Of a stretch of DNA of 64,000 nt, positions 3,865-57,601 are shown piece by piece (the first letter of the stretch is position 1; each line of letters begins with the position of its first letter). Source of the DNA: Escherichia phage tuntematon. A model generated the notes under the pieces. It made no database searches. It saw nothing but the letters and a program-made list of their open reading frames with translations, and was not told where the DNA came from. The position numbers and the translations under genes were made by a program. The DNA lies in the sequence record NC_052660.1. The stretch is one strand, 5' to 3'.

Positions 3865-3913
3865 TTCATCTCCTCATTAGCTATCTGTTATGTCATCCAC
3901 TATACAGACATTT

Positions 3914-37064: not shown

Positions 37065-37065
37065 T

Positions 37066-37722: not shown

Positions 37723-38542
37723 TCAAACTCAAATTTTTGCAAATAAATTTGATGACCTGGAAACTGCTACTTTTGATATCCAAGATTATTCAAAATTGAA
37801 ATTTGGTAGTAACCAAGCCGCGCGTCGTATGGGTAAAGAATTGGCACTTCAGTTTTTTGCTCAAGTGGCAATGAAACATATTGGGGAACAATTTGTTATC
37901 ATTCCTTCTCCTTACAACCATGTGCATAATGCTGCAACAATGATGACAGATCATTTTATTAATTACTTTAATATGTTGCAAGCACAATATGATCAAGGTC
38001 GTTCAGCAGAACTGGACATTATTCATCGTAAAGTTAGCTATATCAACGATTATGGTTTCTTGGATAAAGCTAGTCGTAAGAAACTTATTGATGGGGATAC
38101 ATTCTACTGTAACAAAGAATTCTGGGGGGATAAGAAGCTTGTATTCATTGATGATGTAAATATCACTGGAACGCATGAAGACAAACTGATTGAGATCCTT
38201 AATGAAAATCAAGTTAAAAATGATGTTTACTTCCTGTATTTTGCAAAATATGAAGGTAATCAAGCAGATACCGAAGCTAAACTGAATTTTAACTACATTA
38301 ATACACCGGAAGCGTTTGTTAAAATGATTAATGAAGAACGTGATGCACAGTGTCTTGTTCGTCCTATTAAGTATCTTATGGGCCAAAATCATGAAGACTT
38401 CAAAATCATTCTTAGCCAATTGCCACATTACTATGTAGAGCAACTTTTCTTTGGATGCTTGGGAGAAGGTTACAACCGAATTTCAAAGTATGCTGAAAAC
38501 TTTGAATTCTTGGATCGTTACACAAAACAACACATTCTGTAA
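37715..38542 (+). CDS. type I phosphoribosyltransferase-fold protein
   Basis: PRPP-binding loop KLVFIDDVNITGTHEDK. Confidence 0.65.
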   Translation: MRNQTQIFANKFDDLETATFDIQDYSKLKFGSNQAARRMGKELALQFFAQVAMKHIGEQFVIIPSPYNHVHNAATMMTDHFINYFNMLQAQYDQGRSAELDIIHRKVSYINDYGFLDKASRKKLIDGDTFYCNKEFWGDKKLVFIDDVNITGTHEDKLIEILNENQVKNDVYFLYFAKYEGNQADTEAKLNFNYINTPEAFVKMINEERDAQCLVRPIKYLMGQNHEDFKIILSQLPHYYVEQLFFGCLGEGYNRISKYAENFEFLDRYTKQHIL

Positions 38543-38555
38543 TAAGGAGCTAAAA

Positions 38556-39029
38556 ATGCTTAAAATGAAAACAGGTAATCTTATTGATGCCGCTAAAGCA
38601 GGTGAAGTAACTGTTATTGCTCATTGTTGCAACTGTATGTGTAATATGGGGGCAGGTATTGCCCCACAAATCAAACGAGCATTTCCTTACGCATATGCAG
38701 CAGACTTAGACACAATGGCTGGTGATCAAAGTAAACTAGGTTGTTTTAGTTTAGGGGTGCCAGACGAACAATCAGACCCTTTGGTATATAATCTATACGG
38801 GCAATACCGTTACGGATACAATGCTAAAGGTCGTCAGTTGGACTATGATGCACTTTACGATGCACTAATAGCTATGGCTAACGATTTGCTTCTCCGTGAC
38901 CAAAAATGTAAGATCGGCTTACCTATGATTGGCGCTGGACATGCTGGAGGTAATTGGGCTATCATCCAAGTGATGATTGAAGAAACTTTAGTAAAAACAG
39001 GTCACGATGTGACTATTTATAAACTTTAA
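38556..39029 (+). CDS. macrodomain protein (ADP-ribose binding/hydrolase)
   Basis: VTVIAHCCNCMCNMGAGIAPQIKRAFP and IGLPMIGAGHAGG match macrodomain signature blocks; start moved to ATG 38556 behind AAGGAG. Confidence 0.7.
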   Translation: MLKMKTGNLIDAAKAGEVTVIAHCCNCMCNMGAGIAPQIKRAFPYAYAADLDTMAGDQSKLGCFSLGVPDEQSDPLVYNLYGQYRYGYNAKGRQLDYDALYDALIAMANDLLLRDQKCKIGLPMIGAGHAGGNWAIIQVMIEETLVKTGHDVTIYKL

Positions 39030-39041
39030 GAGGAGATTAGT

Positions 39042-39263
39042 ATGGGTGTTTTTGCAGGTATTGTTGCAGTGGTAAGCTTTTTTGTTATTGCTTTTATGCT
39101 TAGTTTGATTCCAGCTTGGTTACTGTTGCTGGCTTACAACTATGTTGCTGAAGTTATGGGTCATGCAGATATCACTGTCCCAGTAACCTTCTGGACCGTG
39201 GTTTGTGTTTCGTTTATTCTGGCTGTATTACGAGGAATCTTTTCCTCTCATTCAACAAAATAA
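39042..39263 (+). CDS. small membrane protein
   Basis: Two hydrophobic helices. Confidence 0.5.
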   Translation: MGVFAGIVAVVSFFVIAFMLSLIPAWLLLLAYNYVAEVMGHADITVPVTFWTVVCVSFILAVLRGIFSSHSTK

Positions 39264-39342
39264 GTGTTGACATAGTTCTTAAAAAGAGTAAGATATATCA
39301 CATGAAGCGGGGAATAGTTCCCCGCAAAGAGAGGAGAAAAGA

Positions 39343-40317
39343 ATGCAACTTGGTTTCCCAATTATTGATGTAGTTGTTTTAGTTGGTATTTTAGCATTGT
39401 CTATTGGTATTGATTTCTTTGGTCACAAAGAAAATAAAGAAATTTCATTCAAATCCGCAGTTGGTTGGTCGATCTTTTGGATTGGTGTATCATTAGCTTA
39501 TTATGGTTTTGTATACTTCCAACATGGTGCCGATTTTGCTAACTTGTTTTTAAGTGGATATGTGTTGGAAAAATCTTTGTCGGTAGATAACTTGGTAGTA
39601 TTTGTAGCAGTATTCGCAAGTTTTGGTATTAAAAGCACACACTTGCAGCACAAGATTCTACTTTGGGGTATTGCAGGTGCGATTGTCTTCCGAGGTGTGT
39701 TTGTAGCAGTAGGCACTTACTTGTTAAGTTTGGGCTGGTATGTTAATATCTTCTTCGGTGCGGTCATCCTTTTCTGTGCAGCTAAAATGGTATTTGCTGG
39801 AGATAATGACGCAGAAGTTGATTACTCTAAACACTGGGCTACCCGTATTGTTCGTAAACTGTTCCCTGTATCTAATAAAATGGATGGGGAGAAGTTCTTC
39901 ACAATCGAAAATGGTGTTCGTGTAGCAACTCCAGCTTTGGTTTGCGTATTCGTGATGGAAATGGTGGATGTAATCTTTGCAGTAGATTCGGTTCCAGCGG
40001 TGATCGCAGTGACACAAGAACCCCTGCTTGTATTCTCTTCGATGTTATGTGCAATCTTAGGTCTACGTGCTCTGTTCTTTGTTCTTAGTGTCGCACTGAA
40101 GTATCTGGTTCACTTGGAGAAAGCAGTTATTGTGGTTCTGGTGTTTGTAGGCGTTAAACTGATGTATCACCCGTTTGCAGAAACATTGCATGAGAAAATC
40201 AGTTTCCTGCCAGCACATATTGATCCAACTGTTAGTATGTATATCGTGCTTGGTACTTTGGCCCTTGGTGTTATTGCAAGCTTTATCTTCCCTGAAAAAG
40301 AAGAAGCTACTGTTTAA
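39343..40317 (+). CDS. TerC-family integral membrane protein
   Basis: Polytopic membrane protein with LEKSLSVDNLVVFVAVF motif typical of TerC. Confidence 0.6.
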   Translation: MQLGFPIIDVVVLVGILALSIGIDFFGHKENKEISFKSAVGWSIFWIGVSLAYYGFVYFQHGADFANLFLSGYVLEKSLSVDNLVVFVAVFASFGIKSTHLQHKILLWGIAGAIVFRGVFVAVGTYLLSLGWYVNIFFGAVILFCAAKMVFAGDNDAEVDYSKHWATRIVRKLFPVSNKMDGEKFFTIENGVRVATPALVCVFVMEMVDVIFAVDSVPAVIAVTQEPLLVFSSMLCAILGLRALFFVLSVALKYLVHLEKAVIVVLVFVGVKLMYHPFAETLHEKISFLPAHIDPTVSMYIVLGTLALGVIASFIFPEKEEATV

Positions 40318-40323
40318 TAAATG

Positions 40324-40348
40324 AGCCTCCTTCGGGAGGCTATTTTAT
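40324..40348 (+). terminator. rho-independent terminator
   Basis: agcctcc-ttcg-ggaggct then ATTTTAT. Confidence 0.75.
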
Positions 40349-40359
40349 AGGAGAGACTT

Positions 40360-40710
40360 ATGAGTAATTTTGATGAAATTCAAGAACTTGTTTGGGATTT
40401 ATCTGGTGATGTGGATTACATTTCAGATTATCTTTCAAAAGTTTACCCTGGGGTAAGCGTTATGATTGTGACCAAAGATCCAATTAATTTGCCTCCTAAT
40501 GTTGTAGCTTGTTGTGGAAGTGGTTCAGGAGAAGTAGAGCCTGTATCTCGTTGGGAATTAACTAAAGCTGTTTCAAAACGAAACGGTGAAGTTTTGAATA
40601 TTGATATTGAGCAAATATGGACTTCTCCAGCAGCCAAATGGAATGATCCAAATGGTTGGGATTTGTTCTTCTGGGATAATGAGACTGATGATGAGGTGTT
40701 TTTAAAATGA
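40360..40710 (+). CDS. hypothetical protein
   Basis: ORF-track ORF; RBS AGGAGAG. Confidence 0.55.
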   Translation: MSNFDEIQELVWDLSGDVDYISDYLSKVYPGVSVMIVTKDPINLPPNVVACCGSGSGEVEPVSRWELTKAVSKRNGEVLNIDIEQIWTSPAAKWNDPNGWDLFFWDNETDDEVFLK

Positions 40711-40893
40711 AATACTTGTTGGTTGTGTTTGAAAATATCTGTTTTGCAATAGGGTTGTTTGTTGTAATTTTTGTATTGACAAGCGTAATCAACGGCAGTA
40801 AAGTGAGTTTATACCGAGATGGAGAGCAACTTTATTGCTTCTCTGGAGATTTCAAACACAGATGTATTAATAGCCAAAACGAGGAAAGCAAAT

Positions 40894-41331
40894 ATGAAAA
40901 AACTAGCCCTGATTTTAATTGGTTGTATCTTTTTAACAGCTTGCGAGGATGAAACAAATCCTGCACAATACCAACAACCTCCTCAACAATACGCTCAACA
41001 AGGATCTGACGGAGATACAACTATTATCAACAATGGTGGCGGTTCTAGTAGTAGCGGTGTTGGTGAGTTTGCTACAGGTATGTTGTTAGGGCATATGATG
41101 AGTGGCGGTAGTAATCGTAACAGTGGGGATTATAACGATAACAGAACGATTATTAATAAGCATTATAATACACCTAAACCGAAAACTAATTTTTATGGTA
41201 AGCCTAAACAAGAGATAAAAACTTATGAAAAGCCGAGACAAACTTTTAAAACAAATAGTAGCTATACAACTCGTAAATCTTACAATAGCCCTTTAAGTAA
41301 AAAGAGTTCATCTCGTAGCAAGCGACGTTAA
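40894..41331 (+). CDS. lipoprotein, low-complexity Q/P/S/G/N-rich
   Basis: Start moved to ATG 40894 (MKKLALILIGCIFLTAC lipobox) behind RBS GAGGAAAG. Confidence 0.5.
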   Translation: MKKLALILIGCIFLTACEDETNPAQYQQPPQQYAQQGSDGDTTIINNGGGSSSSGVGEFATGMLLGHMMSGGSNRNSGDYNDNRTIINKHYNTPKPKTNFYGKPKQEIKTYEKPRQTFKTNSSYTTRKSYNSPLSKKSSSRSKRR

Positions 41332-41345
41332 TAAGGAGAAAAACA

Positions 41346-41939
41346 ATGACAATTTCTATTCGTACTTCCATCGTAGGTGTTAAAAGGTTGCCTAATGCTT
41401 TGCAAATCACACGCGCTTTGAGGGATACATTCTCTGCTGTGGACGAGCATAAGATGCTTGATAATCTTTCAAATTGGCCCTATTTCCATTATTTTAAAAA
41501 TGAAGATGACGAGTTTATAGACGCTGTTTCTTATGGTTATGATTTCGGTAAGGAGGTTTCTGCTGAAGAATTTGTAGCTATGGTGTTCCCAAACGGTTTG
41601 CCTACTCGCAGTAAACGTAAAAAAGGACCAAAAAACAAGAAACGTGCTACTAATAAAGCTACCATTTTCTTTACTGATGGCACACAATATACGATTAAAG
41701 ATTTTGAAGAGGTATCTTATACAGCAGGTGGGAATCTTTCTTTCTACACCATCAAAAAACAAAACTCTACGTTCAGCCATGTTTCTAACATGATTGAAAT
41801 GTTAGTAGAAGATATTGAAAGCGTAGCTGTGTTAGGTATGCATAAAAGCTTTTTAATTACAAATATTTCAGATTTCAGTGCAAGTTTATCTGGCCCTGAT
41901 TTTGAAGCCACGACCACACATTTCGCTTTTAAGGTGTAA
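41346..41939 (+). CDS. hypothetical protein
   Basis: ORF-track ORF. Confidence 0.55.
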   Translation: MTISIRTSIVGVKRLPNALQITRALRDTFSAVDEHKMLDNLSNWPYFHYFKNEDDEFIDAVSYGYDFGKEVSAEEFVAMVFPNGLPTRSKRKKGPKNKKRATNKATIFFTDGTQYTIKDFEEVSYTAGGNLSFYTIKKQNSTFSHVSNMIEMLVEDIESVAVLGMHKSFLITNISDFSASLSGPDFEATTTHFAFKV

Positions 41940-41942
41940 GTT

Positions 41943-42533
41943 ATGCATACCGAGAGAGACTTGCAACTCTTGTGGTGGGAAGTGATGCAGGAAATAAAAG
42001 AAGATTTTCCTGTTTACTACAACATGTTACGTGAAGCAGGATATAAAGCTTGTGTTAGAAACAAAGTGAATAACTCTTTCGGTTGGTGCAACTACCGAGA
42101 TAAAATTGTTGTTGTAAATTGGCACTTGCATAAGAACTCCACAAGAGATATGATCGTGGATACAATGAAGCACGAAATTGCTCATGCTATTGATGGTTGT
42201 ATGGGTAAGTTTAGTAGGCACGGTGCTCATTGGCAAAAACTGGCAGCAGAATTAGGGGCTAATCCTAAAGCCACTTCCAAAGAGCCGTTGAACCACGAAT
42301 ATAAATATGTTCTTGTTCTGGTAGATAGGTTTGCGACAAGATGTGTTAGAGGTTATAATCGTAAACCTAATCGCATGTACCCAGGTAAGCAACCTAATAT
42401 GTGGTTGAAATCAGATAAAGAAGGGACCGAAGGAAAATTATGGTTGTATAAATGGGACGATTGGGTTAAAGTAGCTAAAGAGTACGGTGTTTCACCATAT
42501 ATAAGAGATGCAGAAGAGGAGAATGAAGAATGA
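41943..42533 (+). CDS. SprT-like zinc metallopeptidase
   Basis: HExxH motif MKHEIAHAIDG with downstream His; SprT-like length. Confidence 0.55.
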   Translation: MHTERDLQLLWWEVMQEIKEDFPVYYNMLREAGYKACVRNKVNNSFGWCNYRDKIVVVNWHLHKNSTRDMIVDTMKHEIAHAIDGCMGKFSRHGAHWQKLAAELGANPKATSKEPLNHEYKYVLVLVDRFATRCVRGYNRKPNRMYPGKQPNMWLKSDKEGTEGKLWLYKWDDWVKVAKEYGVSPYIRDAEEENEE

Positions 42534-43642
42534 CAAGTCCATTTTTAAAAGCAGCTACTGGTGGTCAGAAGAAGCCTGAAATGAGCGTATTTGCTGCAAC
42601 AACAGATGCAAGTAAATCTGTATTCGCTCCAAGCGTGTTAGATGCCAGTCCTGTTTATGCACCAGCGGCACCGCAAGAAGTTCCAGTTTTGCCTTCTATG
42701 ACCCGACAAGAGATCGAAGAGATTGGGGCAGAGGCAGGAACAACCTTGCGTTCCTTGAATGCCGAGGTATTAAAACATCAACGTAGTAATCAAGGCGATC
42801 AGATGAGTGAACGACTCACAGCTTTGATTAAACAGGCAAAACAACTTGATCCAAACTCTATTAAACAAAGCAAGGGTATTACTAAACTCATTAAAAAAGT
42901 TATGGGTATGAAAGAAGACCTGTTTGGGGAGTTTGATAATGTTAATAACCGTATTGAAGAGTTGGTAAAGAACCTTCAAATGGATATTCGCAAAGAAGAA
43001 GATTCCTTGGTATATCTTGAAAAGCTACATCAAGCTATTGGACAGTATGCTGCAAGTTTGAACCGAGATATGCAGCTTCTAACAGCAACCTATGAAAAAG
43101 AAGAACAAGCTTTGGCTGCTCTTCCAGAAGATGCAGTAGAACAGCGACAAGTGATCCGAGATACTTTGGATCTTCTGGAGATTCGTATTGCAGATTTAAA
43201 AGCATTGCGCCTACTGTGTGTCCAAATGGGACCGCGTGTACAAGGTATGCAAAAAGTTTCTGCAAGCTTAATGCGATCTGCGCGTAACATAGTAAATAAT
43301 GTTATTCCTGCTTACTCTGCTAACTTCTCAATGTATATCGAGAGCTTACGTCAAATGAAAGCAGCAGAGACGCAGAATAACGTTCTTGATGAATTTAACC
43401 TGGCAATTAAACTGGGTAGCGATCTTGCCACACAGAATCAGATCGAAGCAGCAGCACTGGCTAACCGTCAAGTGTTGGATATTGAAACTCTGCGTCACGA
43501 TCAGGAAAACTTGGTTAAGATGTTGGAAGAAACTAACCGCATCAATACGGAAGCCCGTGCTGCTCGTGTTGATTATATTAATGAAGTTCAATCTCTGGAA
43601 GACGGGATGGTAGCTGCTGTGAAACGAGGGCTTGGTAAATGA
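42530..43642 (+). CDS. TelA-like (toxic anion resistance family) coiled-coil protein
   Basis: 370-aa mostly helical protein of TelA-like size, sitting between TerC and TerD genes; family call is tentative. Confidence 0.45.
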   Translation: MTSPFLKAATGGQKKPEMSVFAATTDASKSVFAPSVLDASPVYAPAAPQEVPVLPSMTRQEIEEIGAEAGTTLRSLNAEVLKHQRSNQGDQMSERLTALIKQAKQLDPNSIKQSKGITKLIKKVMGMKEDLFGEFDNVNNRIEELVKNLQMDIRKEEDSLVYLEKLHQAIGQYAASLNRDMQLLTATYEKEEQALAALPEDAVEQRQVIRDTLDLLEIRIADLKALRLLCVQMGPRVQGMQKVSASLMRSARNIVNNVIPAYSANFSMYIESLRQMKAAETQNNVLDEFNLAIKLGSDLATQNQIEAAALANRQVLDIETLRHDQENLVKMLEETNRINTEARAARVDYINEVQSLEDGMVAAVKRGLGK

Positions 43643-43833
43643 GAATCCGTATCTATATAATTGATGAAGACATTGGTGTCCGTTATGATGACGAAAAACG
43701 ATTCGCACCGATGGGAGGTATATATCCCCCAAGTGTTCTAGCAGTTTGTCGTGATTGTTATATTTATGAAGGTTGTCGTAACTTCCGTAAATTCGAACTC
43801 CTTGCAGATATTGACTTCAATGAGGAGGAGTAA
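43639..43833 (+). CDS. hypothetical Cys-containing protein
   Basis: ORF-track ORF, ATGA overlap. Confidence 0.5.
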   Translation: MRIRIYIIDEDIGVRYDDEKRFAPMGGIYPPSVLAVCRDCYIYEGCRNFRKFELLADIDFNEEE

Positions 43834-44006
43834 TGAAAATATTACGAGTGAATATTGAAACTGCTTGGTGTGGATGCAATGAGGTTGTGGATATCGAAAT
43901 TGAAGATGATATGTCTCAAGAGGATATAGAAGATCTTGCACACGAAACCTTTCAGGATTATTGTAATTACGGGTTCCATATTTTAGAGGAGGAAGAAGAT
44001 GTATAA
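43833..44006 (+). CDS. candidate 57-aa acidic protein
   Basis: Hand-translated MKILRVNIETAWCGCNEVVDIEIEDDMSQEDIEDLAHETFQDYCNYGFHILEEEEDV; TAATG overlap; not in ORF track. Confidence 0.4.
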   Translation: MKILRVNIETAWCGCNEVVDIEIEDDMSQEDIEDLAHETFQDYCNYGFHILEEEEDV

Positions 44007-44397
44007 TCCAACAGGTATTCTTTTAAAACTTACAGTAACAGACCCTACTCTTTTCACCAAGTTAGCAAGTGGTGAAGTTTATGAAGTAATGAAAGATGAT
44101 GACGGTTGGTGTTATCTTTGTGGCTACTTCCTCTGTGATGCAGAAGAGTTAGAATCCATTGTAACTAAAGGTTTTTATGAAGAACCAGGGTTCCGTGTGG
44201 AAACTACGCAGAAACCTGATACCATTACGTTGACTCGACAGGAACTGATCACAATCATTGAAGATGCTTTTATTGATGGCTGGAATACACAAGATAATGA
44301 CTGGGGTGGACCCGAAGCTTTTCTGGAACATCATAAAGCTTATGGAGAATTTTGTGAAACCACTGTAGCTCTTGATAATCTGAAGGAGGGTTTGTAA
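43999..44397 (+). CDS. hypothetical protein
   Basis: ORF-track ORF. Confidence 0.55.
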   Translation: MYNPTGILLKLTVTDPTLFTKLASGEVYEVMKDDDGWCYLCGYFLCDAEELESIVTKGFYEEPGFRVETTQKPDTITLTRQELITIIEDAFIDGWNTQDNDWGGPEAFLEHHKAYGEFCETTVALDNLKEGL

Positions 44398-44960
44398 TGG
44401 GTTGTTTTAGTTTTTTGTGCAAAGAATCGGGCAAAGCTGCCCTTTCTACTTCTTTCGACGGATCGCCTTGCTACCTCTTTCTTTTGAAGGACGGTGTTGT
44501 TATTGAAGAGATGTATGGCAACTATGATAGTTATGGTTGTGTTTTCTCTGGAAAGGAGGATGAAAATGGTGTTCGTGAACGATTTGAATGGGCTATGGAT
44601 TGGAGTAAGGTTTGTGATTTGATGCATTCCTCAAATCCAAGGGACGGTATCGCTATGGTGCTGGAAGAGTACTTTACAGGTGAAATCCCTACAGAACAAT
44701 CTGACGGAGATCCTAACCAAGGTTGGGGTGATGGTGAAGAAGATCCAGATTGTTTTTTCAGCACAGAAAAGAATAAGTTTAAACGTGTTGACAACCCTTA
44801 TCACAAAGTGCATAATACTCTCATTGAAACAGAAGATGACAAGATGGAAATTGAAGAAGATGATCCTCTTGTAACACTTCCTATAAGTGAGTTACAAAAG
44901 ATCACTAAGGAAGCTTACGATTTGGGCTTCAAAATTGGTAGAGGAGGTATGCGTGTTTAG
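44397..44960 (+). CDS. hypothetical protein
   Basis: ORF-track ORF. Confidence 0.55.
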   Translation: MGCFSFLCKESGKAALSTSFDGSPCYLFLLKDGVVIEEMYGNYDSYGCVFSGKEDENGVRERFEWAMDWSKVCDLMHSSNPRDGIAMVLEEYFTGEIPTEQSDGDPNQGWGDGEEDPDCFFSTEKNKFKRVDNPYHKVHNTLIETEDDKMEIEEDDPLVTLPISELQKITKEAYDLGFKIGRGGMRV

Positions 44961-45231
44961 ATTCAATATTCAAGAAGAAAAAAGTCAGGATTTACCTATT
45001 GCTTTCGAAGATCTTGACGTAGGGGCCACATTCATGTATTATGATGCCTATGAAGACGCAGGGTTGGATACCTACCGTAACTTGGTGTTCATTAAAAATT
45101 CCACAAACAGTGCGATCTGTATTAATGGATCACTAGCACAACGAGGCTATACTCATTGCATCCCACCAGATACAAATATGGTGGAAGTAGATTTAGAAGT
45201 TACCAATATTACACTTAAGAAGGAGAAATAA
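44953..45231 (+). CDS. hypothetical protein (paralog of 46253..46522)
   Basis: Start moved to GTG 44953 behind GGAGGT; FRFNIQEEK...DLDVGATF aligns with LNFEIDEQK...DLDVGDTF. Confidence 0.45.
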   Translation: MFRFNIQEEKSQDLPIAFEDLDVGATFMYYDAYEDAGLDTYRNLVFIKNSTNSAICINGSLAQRGYTHCIPPDTNMVEVDLEVTNITLKKEK

Positions 45232-45232
45232 T

Positions 45233-46027
45233 ATGTCCGAGAAAATCAGCCTGAAAAAACGTCAAGAAAACCTTGCTTTCTCTCTGAAAAAGAATAAGAA
45301 CCTGAATGAAGGTAAGATTGTTCTTCGTGTAGCATGTGCTCTAGATATTTCTGGTAGTATGCATGGTCTATATTCTAGTGGGGTAGTGAGTGATTTTGTA
45401 GGTAAACTGCTTCCTTTTGGTATGCTGTTCGACGATAATCAACAAATTGATATGTGGGCCTTCAATACGAGTTCCCAAGAGCTTACTCCAGCAACAGCAG
45501 ATGTTTACGATGACTATGTTGGTAAATGTATGCGTAATGTTCGTATCGGAGGTGGAACAAATTACGCCCCTGTAATGGCAGATATCTACGATGAGTATTT
45601 TGGCACTGTTACCAAATATATTACCACTAAACAAGTGGTACAAGAGGAGGCTCCAAAGAAAGGCTTCTTTAATCGTCTGCTTGGTAAAACTGAAACAGTA
45701 TCTGTAGAGCGTGAAAAGGTTGTAGCTGTATCTGAACCAGGTGCTGACGTTACCCCTGGTGTTGTATTCTTCCAGACAGACGGTGAGAATGGTGATCCTA
45801 GTGCTGTTCGTCGTCTTATTGAAGAGAATAAGAATAAACCTATTTATTGGTTCATGGTTGGCGTTGGTAATGAGAAGTTTGGCTTCCTGAAAGAACTGGC
45901 AAATGCTTATGATAATGTTGGTTTTATTGGCATTAAAGATTTAGACTTGACAGATTCAGAGCTTTATGACAAACTCTTATCTGAAGAGTTCGGAGAGTGG
46001 GTTGTTAAAGTAGGTGCTAAAAAATGA
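45233..46027 (+). CDS. von Willebrand factor A domain protein (TerY-like)
   Basis: MIDAS motif DISGSM near N-terminus of a Rossmann-like region. Confidence 0.6.
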   Translation: MSEKISLKKRQENLAFSLKKNKNLNEGKIVLRVACALDISGSMHGLYSSGVVSDFVGKLLPFGMLFDDNQQIDMWAFNTSSQELTPATADVYDDYVGKCMRNVRIGGGTNYAPVMADIYDEYFGTVTKYITTKQVVQEEAPKKGFFNRLLGKTETVSVEREKVVAVSEPGADVTPGVVFFQTDGENGDPSAVRRLIEENKNKPIYWFMVGVGNEKFGFLKELANAYDNVGFIGIKDLDLTDSELYDKLLSEEFGEWVVKVGAKK

Positions 46028-46272
46028 TCGACGAGCTTGCCTCTCAAGTCATAGAAAATTATTGGCGCGAGAGAGAAGCTTTCATTATGCGCAGTCTCAA
46101 AGAGTATTTCATTGGGACTGTGCGAATGGAAGATATTGTAAGTAGAGTAGAGATTCATGTATGGCCCGATTATGAAGAATGGGTTGACAAAGAAAATGAA
46201 AATGCTATAATTCTTCGTATATACAAACCGGAGATAACATTAGGAGGAAGAAGTGTTAAACTTCGAAATTGA
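46024..46272 (+). CDS. hypothetical protein
   Basis: ORF-track ORF, ATGA overlap. Confidence 0.5.
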   Translation: MIDELASQVIENYWREREAFIMRSLKEYFIGTVRMEDIVSRVEIHVWPDYEEWVDKENENAIILRIYKPEITLGGRSVKLRN

Positions 46273-46522
46273 TGAGCAAAAAGTAAATAAACGATGCCTT
46301 ACCATTAAAGATTTGGATGTAGGAGATACTTTCGTCTATGAAAATGCATTTGACGAAAATGGTTTAGACCTTAGTGAAATCATTGTTTATTTAAAAGTAG
46401 ATGATGGGGAAAATGATTATTCTGCTGTAGAACTAAACCATCATGCACAATTAGTATCAATCCAAAACACATCTAAGCTTTTGGAAGTAGAATTGACTGT
46501 AACTGGTATTACACTTAAATAA
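46253..46522 (+). CDS. hypothetical protein (paralog of 44953..45231)
   Basis: GTG start; shared DLDVG.TF and LEV.LTVT.ITLK blocks. Confidence 0.5.
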   Translation: MLNFEIDEQKVNKRCLTIKDLDVGDTFVYENAFDENGLDLSEIIVYLKVDDGENDYSAVELNHHAQLVSIQNTSKLLEVELTVTGITLK

Positions 46523-46537
46523 TAGAGGAGACAAAAG

Positions 46538-47140
46538 ATGACTGATAAAATTTCCCTGAAAAAAGGCTCTAGCGAAAAAATTTCCCTGAAGAAGGTTGCT
46601 CCGGCTCTGAAAGAACTGCGCCTGGAATTCTCTTGGAAGTCTGATTCTAAACTGGATCTGGATGTAAGTGCACTGGTTTGTCGTCACAATGCCGCTGGCA
46701 ATCCTGAAATGCTGTCTGCACGTCATCTTGTTTGCTATGCTAACAAGTTTGATCCTGAACGTTCTACCTTCGCTGGTGACGATGTTCGTGATGGCACTGG
46801 CAGCATGGAGCAGATTGATATTACTCTGGCTAAAATCTCTCCTGATGCACAAGAGATTGCCTTTGTTCTGACCATTGATGATGATACAGGTCTGAAACGT
46901 TTTGGTCATGCTTCTGAAGGTATGCTTAAAATCTTCGACTCCGAGCGCAATGTGGAAATTCTGGATTTTGACTTCCTGGCTCCTGAAGTAGCTGGTAACA
47001 CAATCTGCCACGTGGCTTCCTTGGTTCGTGAAGATGGAGAATGGAAGCTGAAAGCATATGGTGTAGGTAAAGCTGGTCTGGATATTTGTGATGTGGTGAT
47101 GGCCTTCGGTGGTAAAAAAGAATGGTATGAATGTCCGTAA
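46538..47140 (+). CDS. TerD-domain protein
   Basis: 200 aa; LDLDVSALV and GDDVRDGTGSMEQIDITL match the TerD signature (GDNxTGEGDGDDEQI). Confidence 0.7.
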   Translation: MTDKISLKKGSSEKISLKKVAPALKELRLEFSWKSDSKLDLDVSALVCRHNAAGNPEMLSARHLVCYANKFDPERSTFAGDDVRDGTGSMEQIDITLAKISPDAQEIAFVLTIDDDTGLKRFGHASEGMLKIFDSERNVEILDFDFLAPEVAGNTICHVASLVREDGEWKLKAYGVGKAGLDICDVVMAFGGKKEWYECP

Positions 47141-48462: not shown

Positions 48463-49026
48463 ATGATTTATTATATTACTCCCTATCTGACAGGAAATAT
48501 CGGCAAGGCTATCAATGAAGCCATTGCCGTTCTTCCAGATGATAGTTGGGTGTGTTTAAGAGATACCGATACAATGTTCCTCCTACCTGATCAACCATCT
48601 ATGCTTGAAGAGCTTGTTATGTCAAACCCGCCTTTTGATGTAATAGGTGCAACTTGTAACAGGTTAGGCAGTGGTTATCAGCTTTTCTCTAACCAAATTA
48701 ACGATGATCCAGATATTCTAAACCATATAGAATATGCTAAGATTGCAAGAGAATATCATAAAGTAAATGTTGAAGAAGTTCCTTTCGGAACACCTCTGGC
48801 AGGTTTCTTTTTGCTTTTTAGAAAATCATTGTGGAATGAAATTCCTTTTGAAGAAAAATCTATCCAATTCGACTTAATTTTCTCTCGCACTTTACATGAA
48901 AAAGGAAAGAGGTTAGGATTGATGCGGGGAATGTATCTGTTTCACATTTACAGATTAGGTCAAACAAATCCTCAACGGTCTATACATCATTTATTACACT
49001 GTCATGATCACAGTAAAACTATTTAG
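48463..49026 (+). CDS. putative glycosyltransferase-like protein
   Basis: DxD-type acidic motif CLRDTDTMF; weak call. Confidence 0.4.
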   Translation: MIYYITPYLTGNIGKAINEAIAVLPDDSWVCLRDTDTMFLLPDQPSMLEELVMSNPPFDVIGATCNRLGSGYQLFSNQINDDPDILNHIEYAKIAREYHKVNVEEVPFGTPLAGFFLLFRKSLWNEIPFEEKSIQFDLIFSRTLHEKGKRLGLMRGMYLFHIYRLGQTNPQRSIHHLLHCHDHSKTI

Positions 49027-49034
49027 GAGAGAAA

Positions 49035-49718
49035 ATGGAAAATATTAAAATCGGAGTGGGTGTTATCACTGTAGGTGTCCGTCCACTTAAAGACTACCTT
49101 GTAACAGATCCACGTGCAGATTTTCGAGTATTCAACGATCCAGATCGTAAAGGTGTAGCTTATGCCAGGAATGAACTTATGCACCAGTTTTATGAAGAAG
49201 GTTATGATTATTGGTTTATTTTTGACGACGATTGCTACCCAGTCATGGAGGGATGGGAAACATATTTTGTAGATCAAGCTGTCTCTGGAGGATGGGATTT
49301 CTTTGGTATGCCGGAGTACTTCAAAGATAAAGTTGTTGGAAGCAAAGGAGAAGTTATTCTCTGGGAACTTGCAATGTGTCAATTTGCAATGTATTCTCGT
49401 GCTGTTGTTGAGAAGATGGGTTATTTCCGTCCTTACACTCACGGTTATGGTTTTGAAGATGCTGAATGGGGACACCGTTTGCAAGCTGCTGGTTTGAATC
49501 ATGGTATTCAGGCAACACCTTGTCCACTTCGTATCATGGCTTATATCCACCCAGACGATGTTTTTGGAAACAATCCTATGCCTTTTGCTAACCTGACAAA
49601 AGAAGAGAAAGAGGCTGCTATTGGGATTAACTGGGAAGAATATAAAGCATCTTTAGAGGATATTAAAAATGGGAAAATCCGAATTTCCTATGAGGAGGCA
49701 CTAGCACATGTCAAATAA
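49035..49718 (+). CDS. glycosyltransferase, GT-A fold (family 2-like)
   Basis: FIFDDDCYP and YGFEDAEWGHR resemble GT2 signature blocks. Confidence 0.6.
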   Translation: MENIKIGVGVITVGVRPLKDYLVTDPRADFRVFNDPDRKGVAYARNELMHQFYEEGYDYWFIFDDDCYPVMEGWETYFVDQAVSGGWDFFGMPEYFKDKVVGSKGEVILWELAMCQFAMYSRAVVEKMGYFRPYTHGYGFEDAEWGHRLQAAGLNHGIQATPCPLRIMAYIHPDDVFGNNPMPFANLTKEEKEAAIGINWEEYKASLEDIKNGKIRISYEEALAHVK

Positions 49719-50655
49719 AAAATGGTCTAAACTAAAAATTGATGCAAAACCTCACAGCGGTTGTGACTATCATCGTATTGTTATACCATTTAACAACAAT
49801 AATATTCAACCTAAGAAAGATGTTGTTGTGTTTAACCGTATCCACTCTAAAGGTGCAGAATACGTTTTATCTTTGAAACGTCAAGGTGTTAAGGTTGTTG
49901 TAGACTTAGATGATTTTTACCAACTTAATCCAGAACATTATTTAGCAAGCCTATACGAGTCAAACACTCATGCTATTGTAGCTATGGTTAAGCTTGCTGA
50001 TGTGGTTATTGTGACTACGGAATATTTGGCATATAAGATCCGTCACTTAAATAGGAATGTTGTTGTGATCCGAAATGCACTTCCTTTTGATAGCGGACAA
50101 TTCACTTTGTCAAATGATCGTTCATCCGGTACCCCTGTTGTATGGGCTGGCGGTGCTAGTCACGAACCAGACTTACGACTAGTCTCTAATACTTTCGATG
50201 ATGAACTTCTTACTATTGCGGGATATGAAGCATCACAAAGCATCACGGGACAAGAGTGGATTAAGATTCGCAGAAATTTACCAAATGCCAAATATAAAGC
50301 CGCTGTAAAAGATTTAGATAATTACATGAGTGTTTACGAAAGTCATGCTATTGCTATAGCTCCTTTGGTAGATAATGATTTTAATAATTGTAAAAGTAAT
50401 CTCAAAATCCTGGAAGCTGGAGCAAAAGGTATTCCAATTGTTTGTTCTAAGGTATTACCTTATTTTAACCCTGTAGATGCTCGCGCTGTTGCTTACGCAG
50501 AGAATAAAGCAGAATGGCATTACGAAATTGTTAAGCTTCTTCGCAATCCAAACTATCGGGAAGATCGTGGCTTGTTCTTGGCTGAACATGTTCGAACACA
50601 TTATAATCTGGCAGATGCAAACGAGTTGCGACGCCAGGTTATTGAAAGTTTGTAG
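49708..50655 (+). CDS. glycosyltransferase, GT-B fold, paralog 1
   Basis: C-terminal SNLKILEAGAKGIPIVCS resembles GT-B nucleotide-sugar site; paralog of 50663..51607. Confidence 0.5.
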   Translation: MSNKKWSKLKIDAKPHSGCDYHRIVIPFNNNNIQPKKDVVVFNRIHSKGAEYVLSLKRQGVKVVVDLDDFYQLNPEHYLASLYESNTHAIVAMVKLADVVIVTTEYLAYKIRHLNRNVVVIRNALPFDSGQFTLSNDRSSGTPVVWAGGASHEPDLRLVSNTFDDELLTIAGYEASQSITGQEWIKIRRNLPNAKYKAAVKDLDNYMSVYESHAIAIAPLVDNDFNNCKSNLKILEAGAKGIPIVCSKVLPYFNPVDARAVAYAENKAEWHYEIVKLLRNPNYREDRGLFLAEHVRTHYNLADANELRRQVIESL

Positions 50656-50662
50656 GTGAAGT

Positions 50663-51607
50663 ATGGGACAAATAATTCTTGACAATCGTAACGGAATCAA
50701 TTATAGTGTCTGCGATTTCCATAGGGTAGTGCTGCCTTACTCAAGGCAGTTCTCTTCACAACCTAAACACAACGTTTTCGTTTTTAACGGAGTGCCAACA
50801 AAAGGTAAAGAGGGCTTTTTAGCCCTTAAAAACCTAGGCTTTAAAATGGTTATGGATTTGGATGACTCTTTAGTTATTCCAAAAGGACACATGTTAGAAG
50901 GTATTTTTGAATCAGGTATTCGTGAACATTTAAAATGGTTTTTAGAGCACAGCGATCTTGTTACAACTACGACACCTGCTTTGCAAGTTGAACTTTCACA
51001 ATACAATGATAATGTGCACATAATCCCTAATGGTCTTCCTTACGATGAAGGTCAATTTGTGTTGACCCGTGATCGCTACTCCAAAACTCCATTAGTCTGG
51101 GCTGGAAGTGAAACACATAAACAAGATTTGGCTATCTTGCCCGATTTTGGTAAAAATCTTACAATATGTGGTTTTCGTAGGGATTCTGAAGTTTTAAGTA
51201 GTCGTGAATGGTCTGTGATCAGAGAAAATGTAGCACCAACTTGTGTTTATGAAGGTGTAAGACCATATGCCAACTACATGGAATCTTACGATGGTCATCA
51301 AATCAGTCTTGCGCCATTGCTTGATAACGTGTTTAATAATGCAAAAAGCAATCTTAAAATTCTTGAGGCAGGTGCTAAGGGTTTACCTTTGATCTGTTCT
51401 CCTCGTGAGAATTATCATACACAAGAGTTTAAAGATTTGTTATTCTTTGCTGAAACACCTTCCGAGTGGAAAGATATTACGGAATACTTATTAAGTGCTC
51501 CCGATGTTTGCATGGAGAAAGGATTAGCATTAGCTAAGTATGTCAGGACTCATTATCACATTGATGTGTTGAATGAGCGTCGTAGACTTTTATTTGAGGA
51601 GCTATAA
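50663..51607 (+). CDS. glycosyltransferase, GT-B fold, paralog 2
   Basis: SNLKILEAGAKGLPLICS; collinear similarity to 49708..50655. Confidence 0.5.
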   Translation: MGQIILDNRNGINYSVCDFHRVVLPYSRQFSSQPKHNVFVFNGVPTKGKEGFLALKNLGFKMVMDLDDSLVIPKGHMLEGIFESGIREHLKWFLEHSDLVTTTTPALQVELSQYNDNVHIIPNGLPYDEGQFVLTRDRYSKTPLVWAGSETHKQDLAILPDFGKNLTICGFRRDSEVLSSREWSVIRENVAPTCVYEGVRPYANYMESYDGHQISLAPLLDNVFNNAKSNLKILEAGAKGLPLICSPRENYHTQEFKDLLFFAETPSEWKDITEYLLSAPDVCMEKGLALAKYVRTHYHIDVLNERRRLLFEEL

Positions 51608-53705: not shown

Positions 53706-53734
53706 GTTGACAACTTTACGGAAGGGACTTATAC
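53706..53734 (+). promoter_or_regulatory. sigma70-like promoter
   Basis: TTGACA 53706-53711, 17-nt spacer, TATACT 53729-53734. Confidence 0.6.
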
Positions 53735-53768
53735 TTGTCTCATCAACCAAACAAGAGGAGAAGTAAAA

Positions 53769-54200
53769 ATGCGTATGACAATCGATCTGAATGCAAAAGT
53801 TAAAGCTGCTGGTGCTCTGGGTGCTGGTGTTATTAAACACAAACAAGCGTTGGCATTTGCCATCCCACATATGATTGTTGAGGATCATCCTGAAGAGTTT
53901 GCTGTAAAAGTTGTTGAGAACAATGTCTCTGTTATTGAACATCTTCCAACTGGACGTTCTTACCGTGTTGTTTCTTCTAAAGGTTTCCGTTTCGATGTAA
54001 GCCCTTCTTTCACAAAAGGTGCTGGTCGTAGTAAAGTGGGTATTCTTTCTTACAAATATTATATCGATAAAGTTGCAGATGGTGTCGCATTCTGTCGTGT
54101 AAGTGAAGGTAAAGTAGATATCATCTTTAAAAATACCAAAAACATGGTTATTTCTGACGATGGTAAAGTTGACCTCACTATTGAGTTCGCTAACAACTAA
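53769..54200 (+). CDS. hypothetical protein
   Basis: ORF-track ORF; RBS AAGAGGAG. Confidence 0.55.
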   Translation: MRMTIDLNAKVKAAGALGAGVIKHKQALAFAIPHMIVEDHPEEFAVKVVENNVSVIEHLPTGRSYRVVSSKGFRFDVSPSFTKGAGRSKVGILSYKYYIDKVADGVAFCRVSEGKVDIIFKNTKNMVISDDGKVDLTIEFANN

Positions 54201-54209
54201 GGAGGACTA

Positions 54210-55004
54210 TTGAGCAAGTTGAATACACTTGATCAATATTACACTAACCCCGCTTATGCGGGGTTCTTATGTGATAAGATCAAAGAAATTTTTGGAGAGG
54301 AAGCTAACTACGTAGAACCATCTGCGGGAGAAGGAGCTTTCTCTTTTTGTTTTAAAAACATAACTTCTTTTGATATTGACCCTAAGTTTGAAGATTGTAT
54401 TGAGGCAGATTTTTTAGCTCAATCTGTTGAGTCTGTTGGCAGTGTAACTGCTTTTGTCGGTAATCCTCCGTTTGGAAAAAATGCCAGTCTTGCCATTAAG
54501 TTCTTTAACCATTGTGCTGAAATGTTGGATAACGAAGGTGGTATTTGTTTTATCTTGCCTCGCACATTTCAAAAAATCTTTTTTGCACACAAACTAAATC
54601 CCCACATGCATCTTCTTTACGAAGAAGAATGTCCAAAAGGATCTTTTATTCTTCATGGAGAACCTTGGGATGTTCCTTGTGTATTCCAGATATGGATTAA
54701 ACGCAACGAGAAGCGTTCTCCCGTTGTTTTAGGAGAGAATCGACTGTTCGTATTAGGTAACAGTAAAGACTACGATATAGCCGTTAGGAGAGCGGGAGCA
54801 AGTGCAGGTAAAGTGTTATCAGAAGAAGATTCTTTATCTGAAGCATCTACCTACTTTTTAAAAGCCTTGACTTCTGATCTTAAAACACGTATCATTGAGG
54901 CTTACCCGTTACTTAAAGCTGAAGCTAGTAAAACTGCGGGAGTAAGAAGTTTAAGTTTAAAAGAACTTCAGTGGGTTCTGGAGAACATTAGAAAGGAGGA
55001 ATAG
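54210..55004 (+). CDS. N6-adenine DNA methyltransferase (orphan)
   Basis: QYYTNP motif, SAM-binding EPSAGEGAF, catalytic GNPPFGK; TTG start behind GGAGGA. Confidence 0.7.
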   Translation: MSKLNTLDQYYTNPAYAGFLCDKIKEIFGEEANYVEPSAGEGAFSFCFKNITSFDIDPKFEDCIEADFLAQSVESVGSVTAFVGNPPFGKNASLAIKFFNHCAEMLDNEGGICFILPRTFQKIFFAHKLNPHMHLLYEEECPKGSFILHGEPWDVPCVFQIWIKRNEKRSPVVLGENRLFVLGNSKDYDIAVRRAGASAGKVLSEEDSLSEASTYFLKALTSDLKTRIIEAYPLLKAEASKTAGVRSLSLKELQWVLENIRKEE

Positions 55005-57601
55005 TGAGTAAGTTTACATGGGATATTGAAGCAAACGGATTGTTGAATAATGACACTATTGATTATTTAGCTAGTCCTTATCGTCTCAAAGACACATTTC
55101 AAATGCACTGTATTGTCTTAGAGAACCATGAAACAGGAGAAATAGTAGCTTTCCACGATGGCCCTAAATACATCTTTGATGGGCGTCCTTATGAAGAGTC
55201 AGATGGTAAATACACATATGTTCTTAAAGAGTATGTGGCGCAAGATTACACACATTTTCAACTAAAAGATTTCCCAGATTTTATTAATCATGAAGGTTAT
55301 TTTAAAGACAAGCCTGAATATCTGGTTGAAATGGCTGTGGCTCACAACGGTATCAACTACGACTGGTTGGCTACAAAACTGTTTTATGGATTAGATTACA
55401 GTGTTAAATATAATACGTGGGGCAAAAATAAGGTAAAACTTATTGACTCCTTGATTTTGAGTAAAGTGTTAAACCCAGATCGAAAGATTGAGGGCAAATC
55501 AGGACATAGCTTGGCAGCACTTTCTCGAAAAGCAGGTGGTGATGTAAAAATAGATTTCCGTAAAGAGATTCCAGAAGAAGATCGATTTAAGACTTTTGCT
55601 GCGGATATGCTTTATTACTGTATCTATGACAACAAAGCCAATACGAGCGTATATAATTACCTTATGGAAGAATGGGGTGATTATGATAAATGGGAAGGTC
55701 CATTTGAACTTGAACAACGTGTAGCAGACATTATTACACGTCAGGAACACCGTGGATTTGCTTTTAACATGAAACAAGCAGAAGAGAACCTTGCTTTTTT
55801 GGATGCAGAAATGGAGCGTCTTCGTTTACTCGTTGAGCCTATTTTGCCACCTAAACCAGCAACAAAAGGTTATCTTAAGGCTTTTATTCCACCTAAGTTG
55901 CAAATTAAAAAGAACTTAGAGCCAACTAACCATATGATCAATTTTGCTAAGAAACATGATGGTCATTTGGAAGAGAGGGATGGCGATTGGTGGTTAGTTA
56001 TGTTGGGGAAAGAGTGGAAACTGCCAGTTGCAGCAGATGAACCTCTATGTGATCCTAACATTCCTGCAACATTGAACGATACAACCCATATTAAAAACTG
56101 GCTTGTAGGATTAGGTTGGGTACCATCTGAATATAAAGATAAAGACTTGACTCTTAAATCTGGCACCAAGATTAAAAAGAGCGAGGAAGAACTTCAGAAA
56201 GGTATTCGAGCTTACGTTGAGCAAACTCTATCTTCTAATTTTTGTCAGGATCGTTGTGATCATCTGGAGTGCACACCGGAAACCCTGGAAAGGAAGATTC
56301 AAGAGCGTATAGCAAAAGGTAAAGGTCGCGGTCTTAAAGTATTGACTAACCCATGTTTTACCAAAGGTCAGGAAAAAGAAATTTGTCCTAACCTGCAAGC
56401 TTTGGGTGAGAAGTTTCCTTATGCTACACAGATTGTAGAATACTTAACGTATAAGCATCGTAGGAACTCTATTTTAGGTGGCGGTGCTGATTGGGAAGAA
56501 GATGAAGAAGATCAAGAATACGATAAAGGTTTCTTAGCCGCAGTAAGGGCGGATGGGCGTATTCCTACCCCAGCCGCTACATGTGATGCTGCAACCTCTC
56601 GTATGAAGCATAGATCTGTAGCTAATATTCCTCGTGTCACATCTTTGTTTGGATGGGAGATGCGTAACTTGTTTGGTGTAGAGGTTCCTAAATACTTCCA
56701 GATCGGCTACGATTTCGACTCTTTGGAAGCAAAAATTGAATCACACTACTGTTGGCGGTACGAGCCGGAGCCACACGAATATTGTAACGCTCTGTTGTTA
56801 GAGAAACCTAACGATGTTCACACAATGATGGCAAAACGTATCACTGAAACTATTGGACGTAAATTTGAACGTAGTCCTGCTAAATCTGTTAAGTATGGTA
56901 TTACCTATGGTGCACAAGCCGACAAGGTTGCTAAAACAATTGGTAGCGATAAGTTTACAGGTCAATTGGTGTTTGATGCTTTCTGGGAAGCTGCATTCCC
57001 ATTGGCGCGTCTTAAAGAACGTTTAAACGATTTCTGGGTTAAGACTGGTAAACAATATGTTTTGGGTATTGACGGTCGTAAGGTTCCTACTCGTTCTGCT
57101 CACGCGATTCTTAACTCTCTATTCCAAAGCGGCGGGGTTATCTGTGCTAAACGTGCAATGGTTATTTATGACGACATGATCGAAGAAGAAGGGCTAAGTG
57201 TTGACTTCTTTAAAGATGACTGGAAGAATAAAGACTTCGTGCAACAAATGATCGCATATCACGATGAAGCCCAGCTTGAAGTTTCTCGTAACCTTGTAGA
57301 ATTTAAATGGTTTTCACCTGAATCATTAGGTTGGAAGAAAGTAGACGATCCTGAAGAACAAAAGAAAATTGATAAAGAATGCCTTGCTAAAGTTGAAGAA
57401 TGGAAGCATAATAAGGAAAAAGAGACGGGACAAATTTGGGCTAACATTCATGAATCTCCCAAAGGTGGATGGTTTACAGCCTATAGTCGGGCAGGTGAAC
57501 TTGCTGCTTTAGCTGTTACTAAGGCTGGAGAATTTTACAATCTTAATGTTCAGCTTACTGCCGGATATGATGTGGGTAACTCCTGGGCGTCCTGTCACTA
57601 G
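55004..57601 (+). CDS. family A DNA polymerase with 3'-5' exonuclease domain (T7 gp5-like)
   Basis: N-terminus FTWDIEANGLL...FHDGPKYIFDG parallels T7 gp5 IVSDIEANALL...FHNGHKYDVPA; 865 aa; GTG start overlapping MTase stop. Confidence 0.9.
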   Translation: MSKFTWDIEANGLLNNDTIDYLASPYRLKDTFQMHCIVLENHETGEIVAFHDGPKYIFDGRPYEESDGKYTYVLKEYVAQDYTHFQLKDFPDFINHEGYFKDKPEYLVEMAVAHNGINYDWLATKLFYGLDYSVKYNTWGKNKVKLIDSLILSKVLNPDRKIEGKSGHSLAALSRKAGGDVKIDFRKEIPEEDRFKTFAADMLYYCIYDNKANTSVYNYLMEEWGDYDKWEGPFELEQRVADIITRQEHRGFAFNMKQAEENLAFLDAEMERLRLLVEPILPPKPATKGYLKAFIPPKLQIKKNLEPTNHMINFAKKHDGHLEERDGDWWLVMLGKEWKLPVAADEPLCDPNIPATLNDTTHIKNWLVGLGWVPSEYKDKDLTLKSGTKIKKSEEELQKGIRAYVEQTLSSNFCQDRCDHLECTPETLERKIQERIAKGKGRGLKVLTNPCFTKGQEKEICPNLQALGEKFPYATQIVEYLTYKHRRNSILGGGADWEEDEEDQEYDKGFLAAVRADGRIPTPAATCDAATSRMKHRSVANIPRVTSLFGWEMRNLFGVEVPKYFQIGYDFDSLEAKIESHYCWRYEPEPHEYCNALLLEKPNDVHTMMAKRITETIGRKFERSPAKSVKYGITYGAQADKVAKTIGSDKFTGQLVFDAFWEAAFPLARLKERLNDFWVKTGKQYVLGIDGRKVPTRSAHAILNSLFQSGGVICAKRAMVIYDDMIEEEGLSVDFFKDDWKNKDFVQQMIAYHDEAQLEVSRNLVEFKWFSPESLGWKKVDDPEEQKKIDKECLAKVEEWKHNKEKETGQIWANIHESPKGGWFTAYSRAGELAALAVTKAGEFYNLNVQLTAGYDVGNSWASCH

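Follow-up and report, generated by a model that had tools for sequence, protein, structure and literature searches.

What does a phage gain from a methyltransferase gene that has no restriction partner and ends on the first base of a DNA polymerase gene? This arrangement is found in Escherichia phage tuntematon (sequence record NC_052660.1), of which a stretch of 64,000 nucleotides (nt), called the window in the following, was analysed. The open reading frame (ORF) at 54210..55004 on the + strand starts with TTG, as seen in the ORF list and in the sequence, and encodes a methyltransferase (MTase) of 264 amino acids. An earlier note on this DNA had described it as an orphan N6-adenine MTase, translationally coupled to the polymerase. 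Taking all data together, we favour with modest confidence a gamma-class DNA N6-adenine MTase that is part of the replication module, methylates a specific site and provides narrow protection.

Motifs, family and predicted fold of the methyltransferase

The motifs QYYTNP, EPSAGEGAF and GNPPFGK, to which the earlier note had pointed, are all present in the translation. The first is part of DQYYTNP at residues 8-14 (nt 54231-54251), the second spans residues 36-44 (nt 54315-54341), and the third residues 84-90 (nt 54459-54479). A total of 2462 homologous proteins was found at E<=1e-3, and 60 homologues with 38-89% identity were aligned (alignment A1). None of the motifs X, I, II, III and IV varies among these 60 sequences, with D8 and T12 in motif X, E36, P37, A39, G40 and G42 in motif I, D55 in motif II, and N85, P86, P87 and G89 in motif IV. 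The NPPF of motif IV occupies residues 85-88, and F88 is kept in at least 90% of the sequences. Considering the number of homologues and the invariant catalytic motif residues, the ORF is far beyond chance. Its TTG start is supported by the N-termini of the homologues (MSKRNTLDQYYT...), which agree in A1. Since the SAM (S-adenosylmethionine)-binding and catalytic residues are invariant, the gene appears to be under purifying selection and not a relic.

Further downstream, the motif VPCVFQIW at residues 155-162 is followed by about 100 conserved residues, and this C-terminal part of the protein holds the conserved blocks RRVGGxAGK and TAGVRS. The linear order X-I-IV-VIII with a C-terminal recognition region is that of the gamma class, as defined in the Malone-Blumenthal-Cheng scheme. 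The AlphaFold model calculated from A1 reached a predicted local distance difference test score (pLDDT) of 93.8 and a predicted template modelling score (pTM) of 0.89. It has the Rossmann SAM fold with the glycine-rich motif I (EPSAGEGAF) and matches class I MTase folds. In a Foldseek comparison with the PDB, gamma-class DNA adenine MTases took the lead, with M.BseCI (7.7e-8) followed by M.TaqI, a Type I M subunit and CamA. Among solved structures, an alignment covering 220-249 of the 264 residues was obtained with gamma-class DNA MTases only (M.BseCI, MmeI, M.TaqI, CamA). A search of viral folds in BFVD added no named relatives. Judged by the model, the catalytic core is that of a generic NPPF amino-methyltransferase, and the whole architecture resembles a gamma-class catalytic domain.

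The profile searches point in the same direction. PADLOC MTase_II PDLC03255 matches nearly over its full length at 1.5e-36, with positions 15-250 of the 269 in the profile aligned to residues 21-254, and PDLC03256 matches at 3.8e-28. The identity given in the earlier note can be kept: we are dealing with an amino-methyltransferase of the NPPF type, for which DNA N6-adenine MTase is the best reading. With M.TaqI, M.BseCI, CamA and the MTase module of MmeI it shares the Rossmann SAM fold, the motif order X-I-II-III-IV (NPPF/Y)-V-VIII and a C-terminal recognition part. Sequence identity to such M.TaqI-type enzymes amounts to only 12-20%, and these possess a separate C-terminal recognition domain of 150-300 residues, whereas the phage protein ends at 264 amino acids, about 100 residues past motif VIII.

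The Pfam family PF26055 (Mtase_EDM2) was not used as evidence. It is precomputed for many homologues and for P0016, a phage homologue with 49% identity, but when the window protein and six homologues were scanned locally against Pfam, the match did not reappear, even with a limit of E<=10. Membership is marginal and silent on the substrate, and a literature search for the accession PF26055 found nothing.

The adenine-MTase label was already available for this gene. The phage is a Phapecoctavirus (Stephanstirmvirinae), and a region of 4 kb around the gene shows 98-99% identity to more than 60 genomes of this genus, among them Escherichia phages EP57, SKA64, Mt1B1_P17 and phAPEC8. In phAPEC8 the same ORF is gp078, located between gp077 (hypothetical protein) and gp079 (DNA polymerase I). 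It is annotated as 'putative DNA N6-adenine methyltransferase, similar to Escherichia phage rv5', and this label has been in GenBank since 2012. The MTase protein is 97-99.6% conserved across 63 phapecoctavirus records, and the GC content of the gene (0.381, compared to 0.393 for the window) indicates that it is not a recent import.

DNA as the expected substrate

One genome per prokaryotic species was scanned for relatives of the MTase. This resulted in 280 stretches encoding such proteins, and the neighbouring genes were clustered in the 79 loci that were kept. At 14-15 of these 79 bacterial loci, a conserved same-strand ORF of about 215 amino acids lies directly downstream and either abuts the MTase stop codon or overlaps it. 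The bacterial MTase homologues with this neighbour show 33-43% identity. One member of the ~215-amino-acid family, the sole one scanned against PADLOC, matches REase_II PDLC03460 at 5.3e-15. Two-gene Type II restriction-modification systems thus seem to be part of the family. Given this pairing with a putative Type II restriction endonuclease (REase) in bacteria, DNA is the expected substrate of the MTase. The bacterial systems that match PADLOC MTase_II have the REase-like partner downstream, while the phage gene has a small gene, p143, as neighbour instead, and the recognition sequence of the phage enzyme may differ from theirs. Other bacterial MTase copies lie in prophages, for instance that of the Leclercia locus (L025), with a gpA-type terminase gene 3 kb away, and the metagenomic copies that were looked up lie in large phage-like contigs.

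We also considered that the enzyme may be a METTL5-like RNA N6-adenine MTase acting on rRNA, tRNA or mRNA of the host or the phage. The RNA adenine MTases KsgA, TrmN and Erm rank close behind the DNA enzymes in the Foldseek comparison, and a single-sequence search of the PDB with the MTase returned Ta1320 alone, at E=0.18. However, the RNA enzymes align over the core only (about 150 residues; 136-154), compared to 220-249 residues for the gamma-class DNA MTases. METTL5, Ta1320 and PH1948, of the family of 18S rRNA N6-methyladenosine MTases, are about 200 amino acids long and lack the conserved C-terminal ~100 residues of the phage protein, which shows no full-length match to such a single-domain protein. 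METTL5 works together with TRMT112 on rRNA, while the context of the phage MTase is DNA replication. The nearly full-length matches to Type II MTase profiles derived from REBASE, the pairing of bacterial homologues with a putative Type II REase, and the position of the gene within DNA replication modules in every phage checked also argue against RNA as substrate, and we regard this alternative as quite improbable.

Gene neighbourhood and orphan status

The MTase gene and its surroundings comprise the following features:

53707..53735, + strand: sigma70-like promoter TTGACA-17-TATACT with 11/12 matches, upstream of the p143-MTase-polymerase block
53769..54200, + strand: p143, basic protein of 143 amino acids and unknown function (PHROG 9938), with the motif SPSFTKGxGRSK
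54200..54205, + strand: Shine-Dalgarno sequence AGGAGG for the MTase, 4 nt before the TTG, overlapping the TAA of p143 (54198-54200)
54210..55004, + strand: predicted gamma-class DNA N6-adenine MTase of 264 amino acids (motifs, alignment, fold, PADLOC, phAPEC8 annotation)
54994..54999, + strand: Shine-Dalgarno sequence AGGAGG for the DNA polymerase, within the 3' end of the MTase gene and 4 nt before the GTG
55002..55006, + strand: stop/start junction TAGTG, also annotated in phAPEC8, vB_Ec-G1 and iGC_PHA_EC001
55004..57601, + strand: family-A DNA polymerase of 865 amino acids with an N-terminal 3'-5' exonuclease domain (Pfam, PHROG)

The earlier note had stated that no restriction endonuclease adjoins the MTase gene, and this holds: the neighbours are p143 upstream and the polymerase downstream. 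A hidden Markov model of the REase family that is linked to the bacterial homologues was searched against the six-frame translation of the window and found no member (best E=1.5). In addition, tblastn with one member of the linked family against 50,697 phage records gave hits in 28 cyanophage records only, and in no E. coli phage. These results support orphan status of the MTase with regard to the one REase family that was found linked to its homologues; no exhaustive search for other REase families was made.

The 28 cyanophage records are from T4-like phages, and their homologues of the REase family, with 31-33% identity, are annotated as 'hypothetical protein' (e.g., S-SM1 41602-42189 and Syn1 55670-56191). 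Partial matches to the C-terminal two-thirds of the MTase were seen in cyanophages S-CAM7, P-SSM5 and S-SKS1.

An example of the solitary adenine MTases of phages is T4 Dam, which belongs to a different permutation class from the tuntematon enzyme. As is generally known, and after Murphy et al. 2013 as cited in PMC12210895, such enzymes likewise have no cognate endonuclease, are expressed together with genes for DNA metabolism, and are presumed to protect the progeny DNA. The tuntematon MTase differs from the T4 Dam type in having a conserved small partner gene, p143.

Evidence against the favoured reading and the extent of protection

A number of observations weigh against a site-specific, protective DNA MTase. 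In Pfam, nothing matched at E<=0.01; the best model, Eco57I, reached 15.5 bits compared to a cut-off of 25.3, and N6_Mtase failed its threshold as well. NCBIfam gave no match. PHROG 5172 matches at 6.7e-110 but bears the label 'unknown function'. A large target-recognition domain of its own is missing from the protein, and its isoelectric point (pI) is acidic (5.31), both of which weigh on the assumption that it recognises a DNA site. In the literature searched, no methylome or biochemical data for the MTase family were found. Finally, the restriction data for related phages have to be considered. In the BASEL collection, Vequintavirinae and their kin are reported as unusually susceptible to restriction (the systems tested were EcoKI, EcoCFT_I, EcoRI, EcoRV, EcoP1_I and EcoCFT_II). 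Two of the BASEL vequintaviruses, RudolfGeigy and JeffSchatz, carry an orthologue of the MTase with 54% identity. Since carriers of the orthologue are sensitive, broad protection is unlikely, and any protection would be narrow.

The sensitivity of these carriers makes non-specific adenine methylation, as well as protection of GAATTC or GATATC, unlikely, at least for the 54% orthologue. Narrow, site-specific protection against a cognate enzyme seems to be the most economical reading. A search for target-site or methylome literature on phAPEC8-, rV5- and Stephanstirmvirinae-type phages found none.

The failure of every curated family model to reach its threshold, together with the lack of restriction protection that BASEL reports for the Vequintavirinae, two of which carry the orthologue, would also be expected if the gene were an inactive relic. 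We give hardly any credence to this view, as none of the SAM-binding and catalytic motif residues changes in 60 homologues, even at 38% identity, the protein is conserved at 97-99.6% in the phapecoctavirus records, and the predicted fold is confident and complete.

The overlap with the polymerase gene

The TAG stop codon of the MTase gene (55002-55004) and the GTG start codon of the polymerase gene have base 55004 in common, reading TAGTG, and this part of the earlier note is confirmed. The downstream ORF (55004..57601) encodes a family-A DNA polymerase (Pfam DNA_pol_A 1.4e-13; PHROG 17 2.7e-111). GTG 55004 is the sole plausible start, since the exonuclease motif WDIEANGL begins at residue 6.

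From this overlap the earlier note had suggested that translation of the MTase and the polymerase is coupled, so that the MTase dose follows replication. Self-methylation in the course of replication would then provide anti-restriction protection or an epigenetic signal for packaging or late transcription. The one-base overlap does exist and recurs in all three phapecoctavirus annotations that were checked, the two genes are probably on a common transcript, and the MTase gene is located in the replication module. Overlap of the upstream stop with the downstream start is one feature expected for coupling; two others are the lack of an independent, accessible ribosome-binding site and conservation beyond general gene packing, and neither of these was found. 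Overlaps are the norm in these genomes. In the + strand block of SKA64, a phage with 99% identity, 20 of 44 same-strand junctions overlap (45%; the overlap is 1 nt long in four cases, 4 nt in nine and 8 nt in five), and in the phAPEC8 region around the gene the same is true for 7 of 17 (41%), four of them by exactly 1 nt. An AGGAGG of its own precedes the polymerase gene, and when 54950-55050 was folded, these bases remained unpaired in the minimum-free-energy structure. This fold is no more stable than those of shuffled sequences (z=-1.29), and no RNA structure occluding the ribosome-binding site of the polymerase was found in it. There is no indication that translation of the polymerase depends on ribosomes coming from the MTase gene.

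The adjacency is also not a trait of the family. In a metagenomic phage (L092) with an MTase of 59% identity, the order primase/helicase, small ORF, MTase and PolA is kept, but MTase and polymerase genes are separated by a gap of 36 nt. In rV5-like phages the MTase gene comes after one for a DnaQ-like exonuclease; this is the position of the 54% orthologue in the vequintavirus RudolfGeigy (Bas52), far away from the polymerase gene. The homologue in Vibrio phage IBT_VpB-34 precedes a ribonucleotide reductase gene, and three other phage contigs have the MTase beside ribonucleotide reductase genes. What the lineages have in common is that the MTase gene sits in a DNA-metabolism module in every phage checked. 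The restriction hypersensitivity that BASEL reports for the Vequintavirinae and their kin, with the orthologue present in two of them, is a further point against general anti-restriction through coupling. Considering all this, the claim that translational coupling ties the MTase dose to replication found no support; it is improbable, and ordinary gene packing accounts for the overlap.

Co-transcription is a different matter. The promoter at 53707-53735 coincides with a 'putative host dependent promoter' annotated in phAPEC8 (L001 6006-6044). Promoter-like sites were overall not enriched (16 found versus 18.7 expected from shuffled sequences), so that the call rests on match quality and position. 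A scan detected no terminator-like site on the + strand between this promoter and the end of the polymerase gene. With a promoter upstream and no terminator-like site before the polymerase stop codon, it is reasonable to assume that p143, MTase and polymerase are probably transcribed together, and the MTase is likely to be expressed during replication.

A second promoter-like site (TTGACT-17-TATCAT, 10/12 matches) is present at 54867-54895 on the + strand, inside the 3' end of the MTase gene, with some 110 nt left to the start of the polymerase gene. A polymerase transcript independent of the MTase could arise from it. Such sites are not enriched over shuffled sequences there.

The polymerase gene itself varies among relatives. 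It has a length of 3333 nt in vB_Ec-G1 and iGC_PHA_EC001 (L090 and L091, at 1605-4937 in both), and probably also in vB_EcoM_01 and MRostami-2023b, compared to 2598 nt in the window. The in-frame insertion of 735 nt is probably an intein or a similar mobile insert. In iGC_PHA_EC001 a gene for an HNH endonuclease directly follows the polymerase gene, while tuntematon has neither the HNH gene nor the insertion.

A small gene, p143, accompanies the methyltransferase

The p143 gene ends nine bases ahead of the MTase start codon, with its TAA lying partly within the ribosome-binding site of the MTase. The protein matches PHROG 9938 at 9.8e-63, which is labelled 'unknown function', and has no match in Pfam, NCBIfam, PADLOC or the PDB. 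The p143 gene adjoins the MTase gene in all eight phage lineages checked, upstream in seven of them and downstream in the rV5-like phages. Homologues adjacent to the MTase gene were found at loci L092, L093, L094, L095, L009, L008 and L096. In a Vibrio phage (L009) and in four independent metagenomic contigs (L092-L095), they lie directly upstream and were detected by single-round phmmer with E from 7e-49 to 4e-6. In these four contigs the small p143-like ORF overlaps the MTase start by 1-17 nt. In RudolfGeigy the p143 homologue (blastp 2e-13) directly follows the MTase orthologue with an overlap of 38 nt. In the phages checked, p143, and not the polymerase, is thus the conserved partner of the MTase. 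The bacterial MTase homologues linked to a REase are without p143.

In an alignment of p143 proteins (A2), P33, V67, P79, S80, K83, G84, R87 and G132 are invariant, and the motif SPSFTKGxGRSK can be recognised. The family is tiny: a search of 1.84 billion proteins gave just 24 cluster representatives at E<=1e-3. p143 has a pI of 9.19, opposed to 5.31 for the MTase. The MTases linked to p143 have a median pI of 6.9, compared to 8.6 for those linked to a REase, a weak and inconsistent trend, with two of the partners being acidic. A structural model of p143 from an alignment of four sequences had a pLDDT of 52.6 and gave no usable fold.

Two ideas on p143 were rejected. The first was that p143 is a degenerate REase: hhalign revealed no relation to the bacterial REase family, and since no acidic residue is invariant, a PD-(D/E)xK nuclease is unlikely. 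The second was that P0020 (395 amino acids; L096 30-1217), which matches p143 at 5e-9 in blastp, represents a natural fusion of p143 and MTase. An in-frame stop codon separates the two parts, and the fusion is a read-through of gene calling. The public gene call reads this stop codon as Gln; either the gene caller used an alternative genetic code, or the phage recodes the stop codon.

The p143 profile also matches Ser/Thr-rich repetitive proteins, namely P0128 (4054 amino acids), P0141 (2373), P0136 (690) and P0146 (693), in 5-10 stretches each with E from 2.8e-16 to 3.3e-4. These matches are probably compositional or repeat artefacts.

The linkage raises the question whether p143 and the MTase form a two-protein module with a role other than classical anti-restriction, in which p143 would act as accessory factor or as reader of the mark. 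The two genes stay together in all eight lineages despite rearrangement, and the pairs often overlap, by 1-38 nt. A basic p143 next to an acidic MTase, the less basic character of p143-linked MTases compared to REase-linked ones, and the tiny size of the p143 family would also fit. On the other side, there is no evidence for a physical interaction, the apparent fusion P0020 having proved to be a read-through. REase-linked homologues of the same length do without p143, so that the MTase is probably self-sufficient. The model of p143 gave no usable fold, and the pI trend is inconsistent. In such a module, which we consider rather unlikely, the mark would serve DNA transactions of the phage itself, for example discrimination between phage and host DNA for phage nucleases or control of replication and recombination. 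If p143 and the compact MTase do constitute a so far undescribed module, which we think unlikely but worth keeping in mind, p143 may target or activate the enzyme or read its mark, for example in marking replicating phage DNA as self.

Other features of the window and related records

On the + strand of the window, at about 36459-47140, a gene set resembling tellurite resistance genes (by the annotation of SKA64) is flanked by the genes for anaerobic ribonucleotide reductase and for the endolysin. It comprises genes for a HAD hydrolase, a phosphoribosyltransferase, a Macro-domain phosphatase, a TerC-family membrane protein, and SprT-like, TelA, vWA-TerF-like and TerD proteins. Four glycosyltransferase genes follow each other at 48463-51607 (+ strand), directly upstream of the primase/helicase gene; in BASEL, the related phi92-like phages were found to be sensitive to restriction.

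The region around the MTase at 98-99% identity (phapecoctavirus type), or the rV5-type orthologue at about 54%, was also found in MG065650.1, MG065676.1, MG065674.1, MG065646.1 and OP562383.1. These five records are titled 'Campylobacter phage' (B15, A116, A140, D1) or 'Acinetobacter phage vB_AbaM_ABPW7', and they give the impression of E. coli phages whose records bear the name of a different host.

Proposed role of the methyltransferase

We suggest the following scenario for the gamma-class DNA N6-adenine MTase of tuntematon. The host-type promoter at 53707-53735 would drive expression of p143, MTase and polymerase early or in the middle of infection, and the MTase would be produced while the phage DNA is copied. 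It would use SAM to methylate adenine at the N6 position within one short DNA site on newly replicated genomes. Progeny would be protected only in hosts with a restriction enzyme whose specificity matches. p143 may act as helper or regulator of the MTase, and the one-base overlap with the polymerase gene would reflect ordinary packing and not a dosing device.

Solitary adenine MTases are common in phages, so that the finding of an orphan MTase alone adds little. The restriction sensitivity of phages carrying an orthologue in BASEL implies that an orphan MTase should not be assumed to mean anti-restriction. The family to which the enzyme belongs is widespread, as its many homologues demonstrate, and no characterised member was found in the literature searched; the putative Type II REase next to some bacterial homologues now provides a link of the family to DNA, as far as gene neighbourhoods indicate. 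The linkage to p143 is a modest new lead for an accessory factor of MTases, and is cheap to test. Phages of the phapecoctavirus type are used in phage-therapy and biocontrol work, and knowledge of the methylation motif would help to predict their host range on restricting strains.

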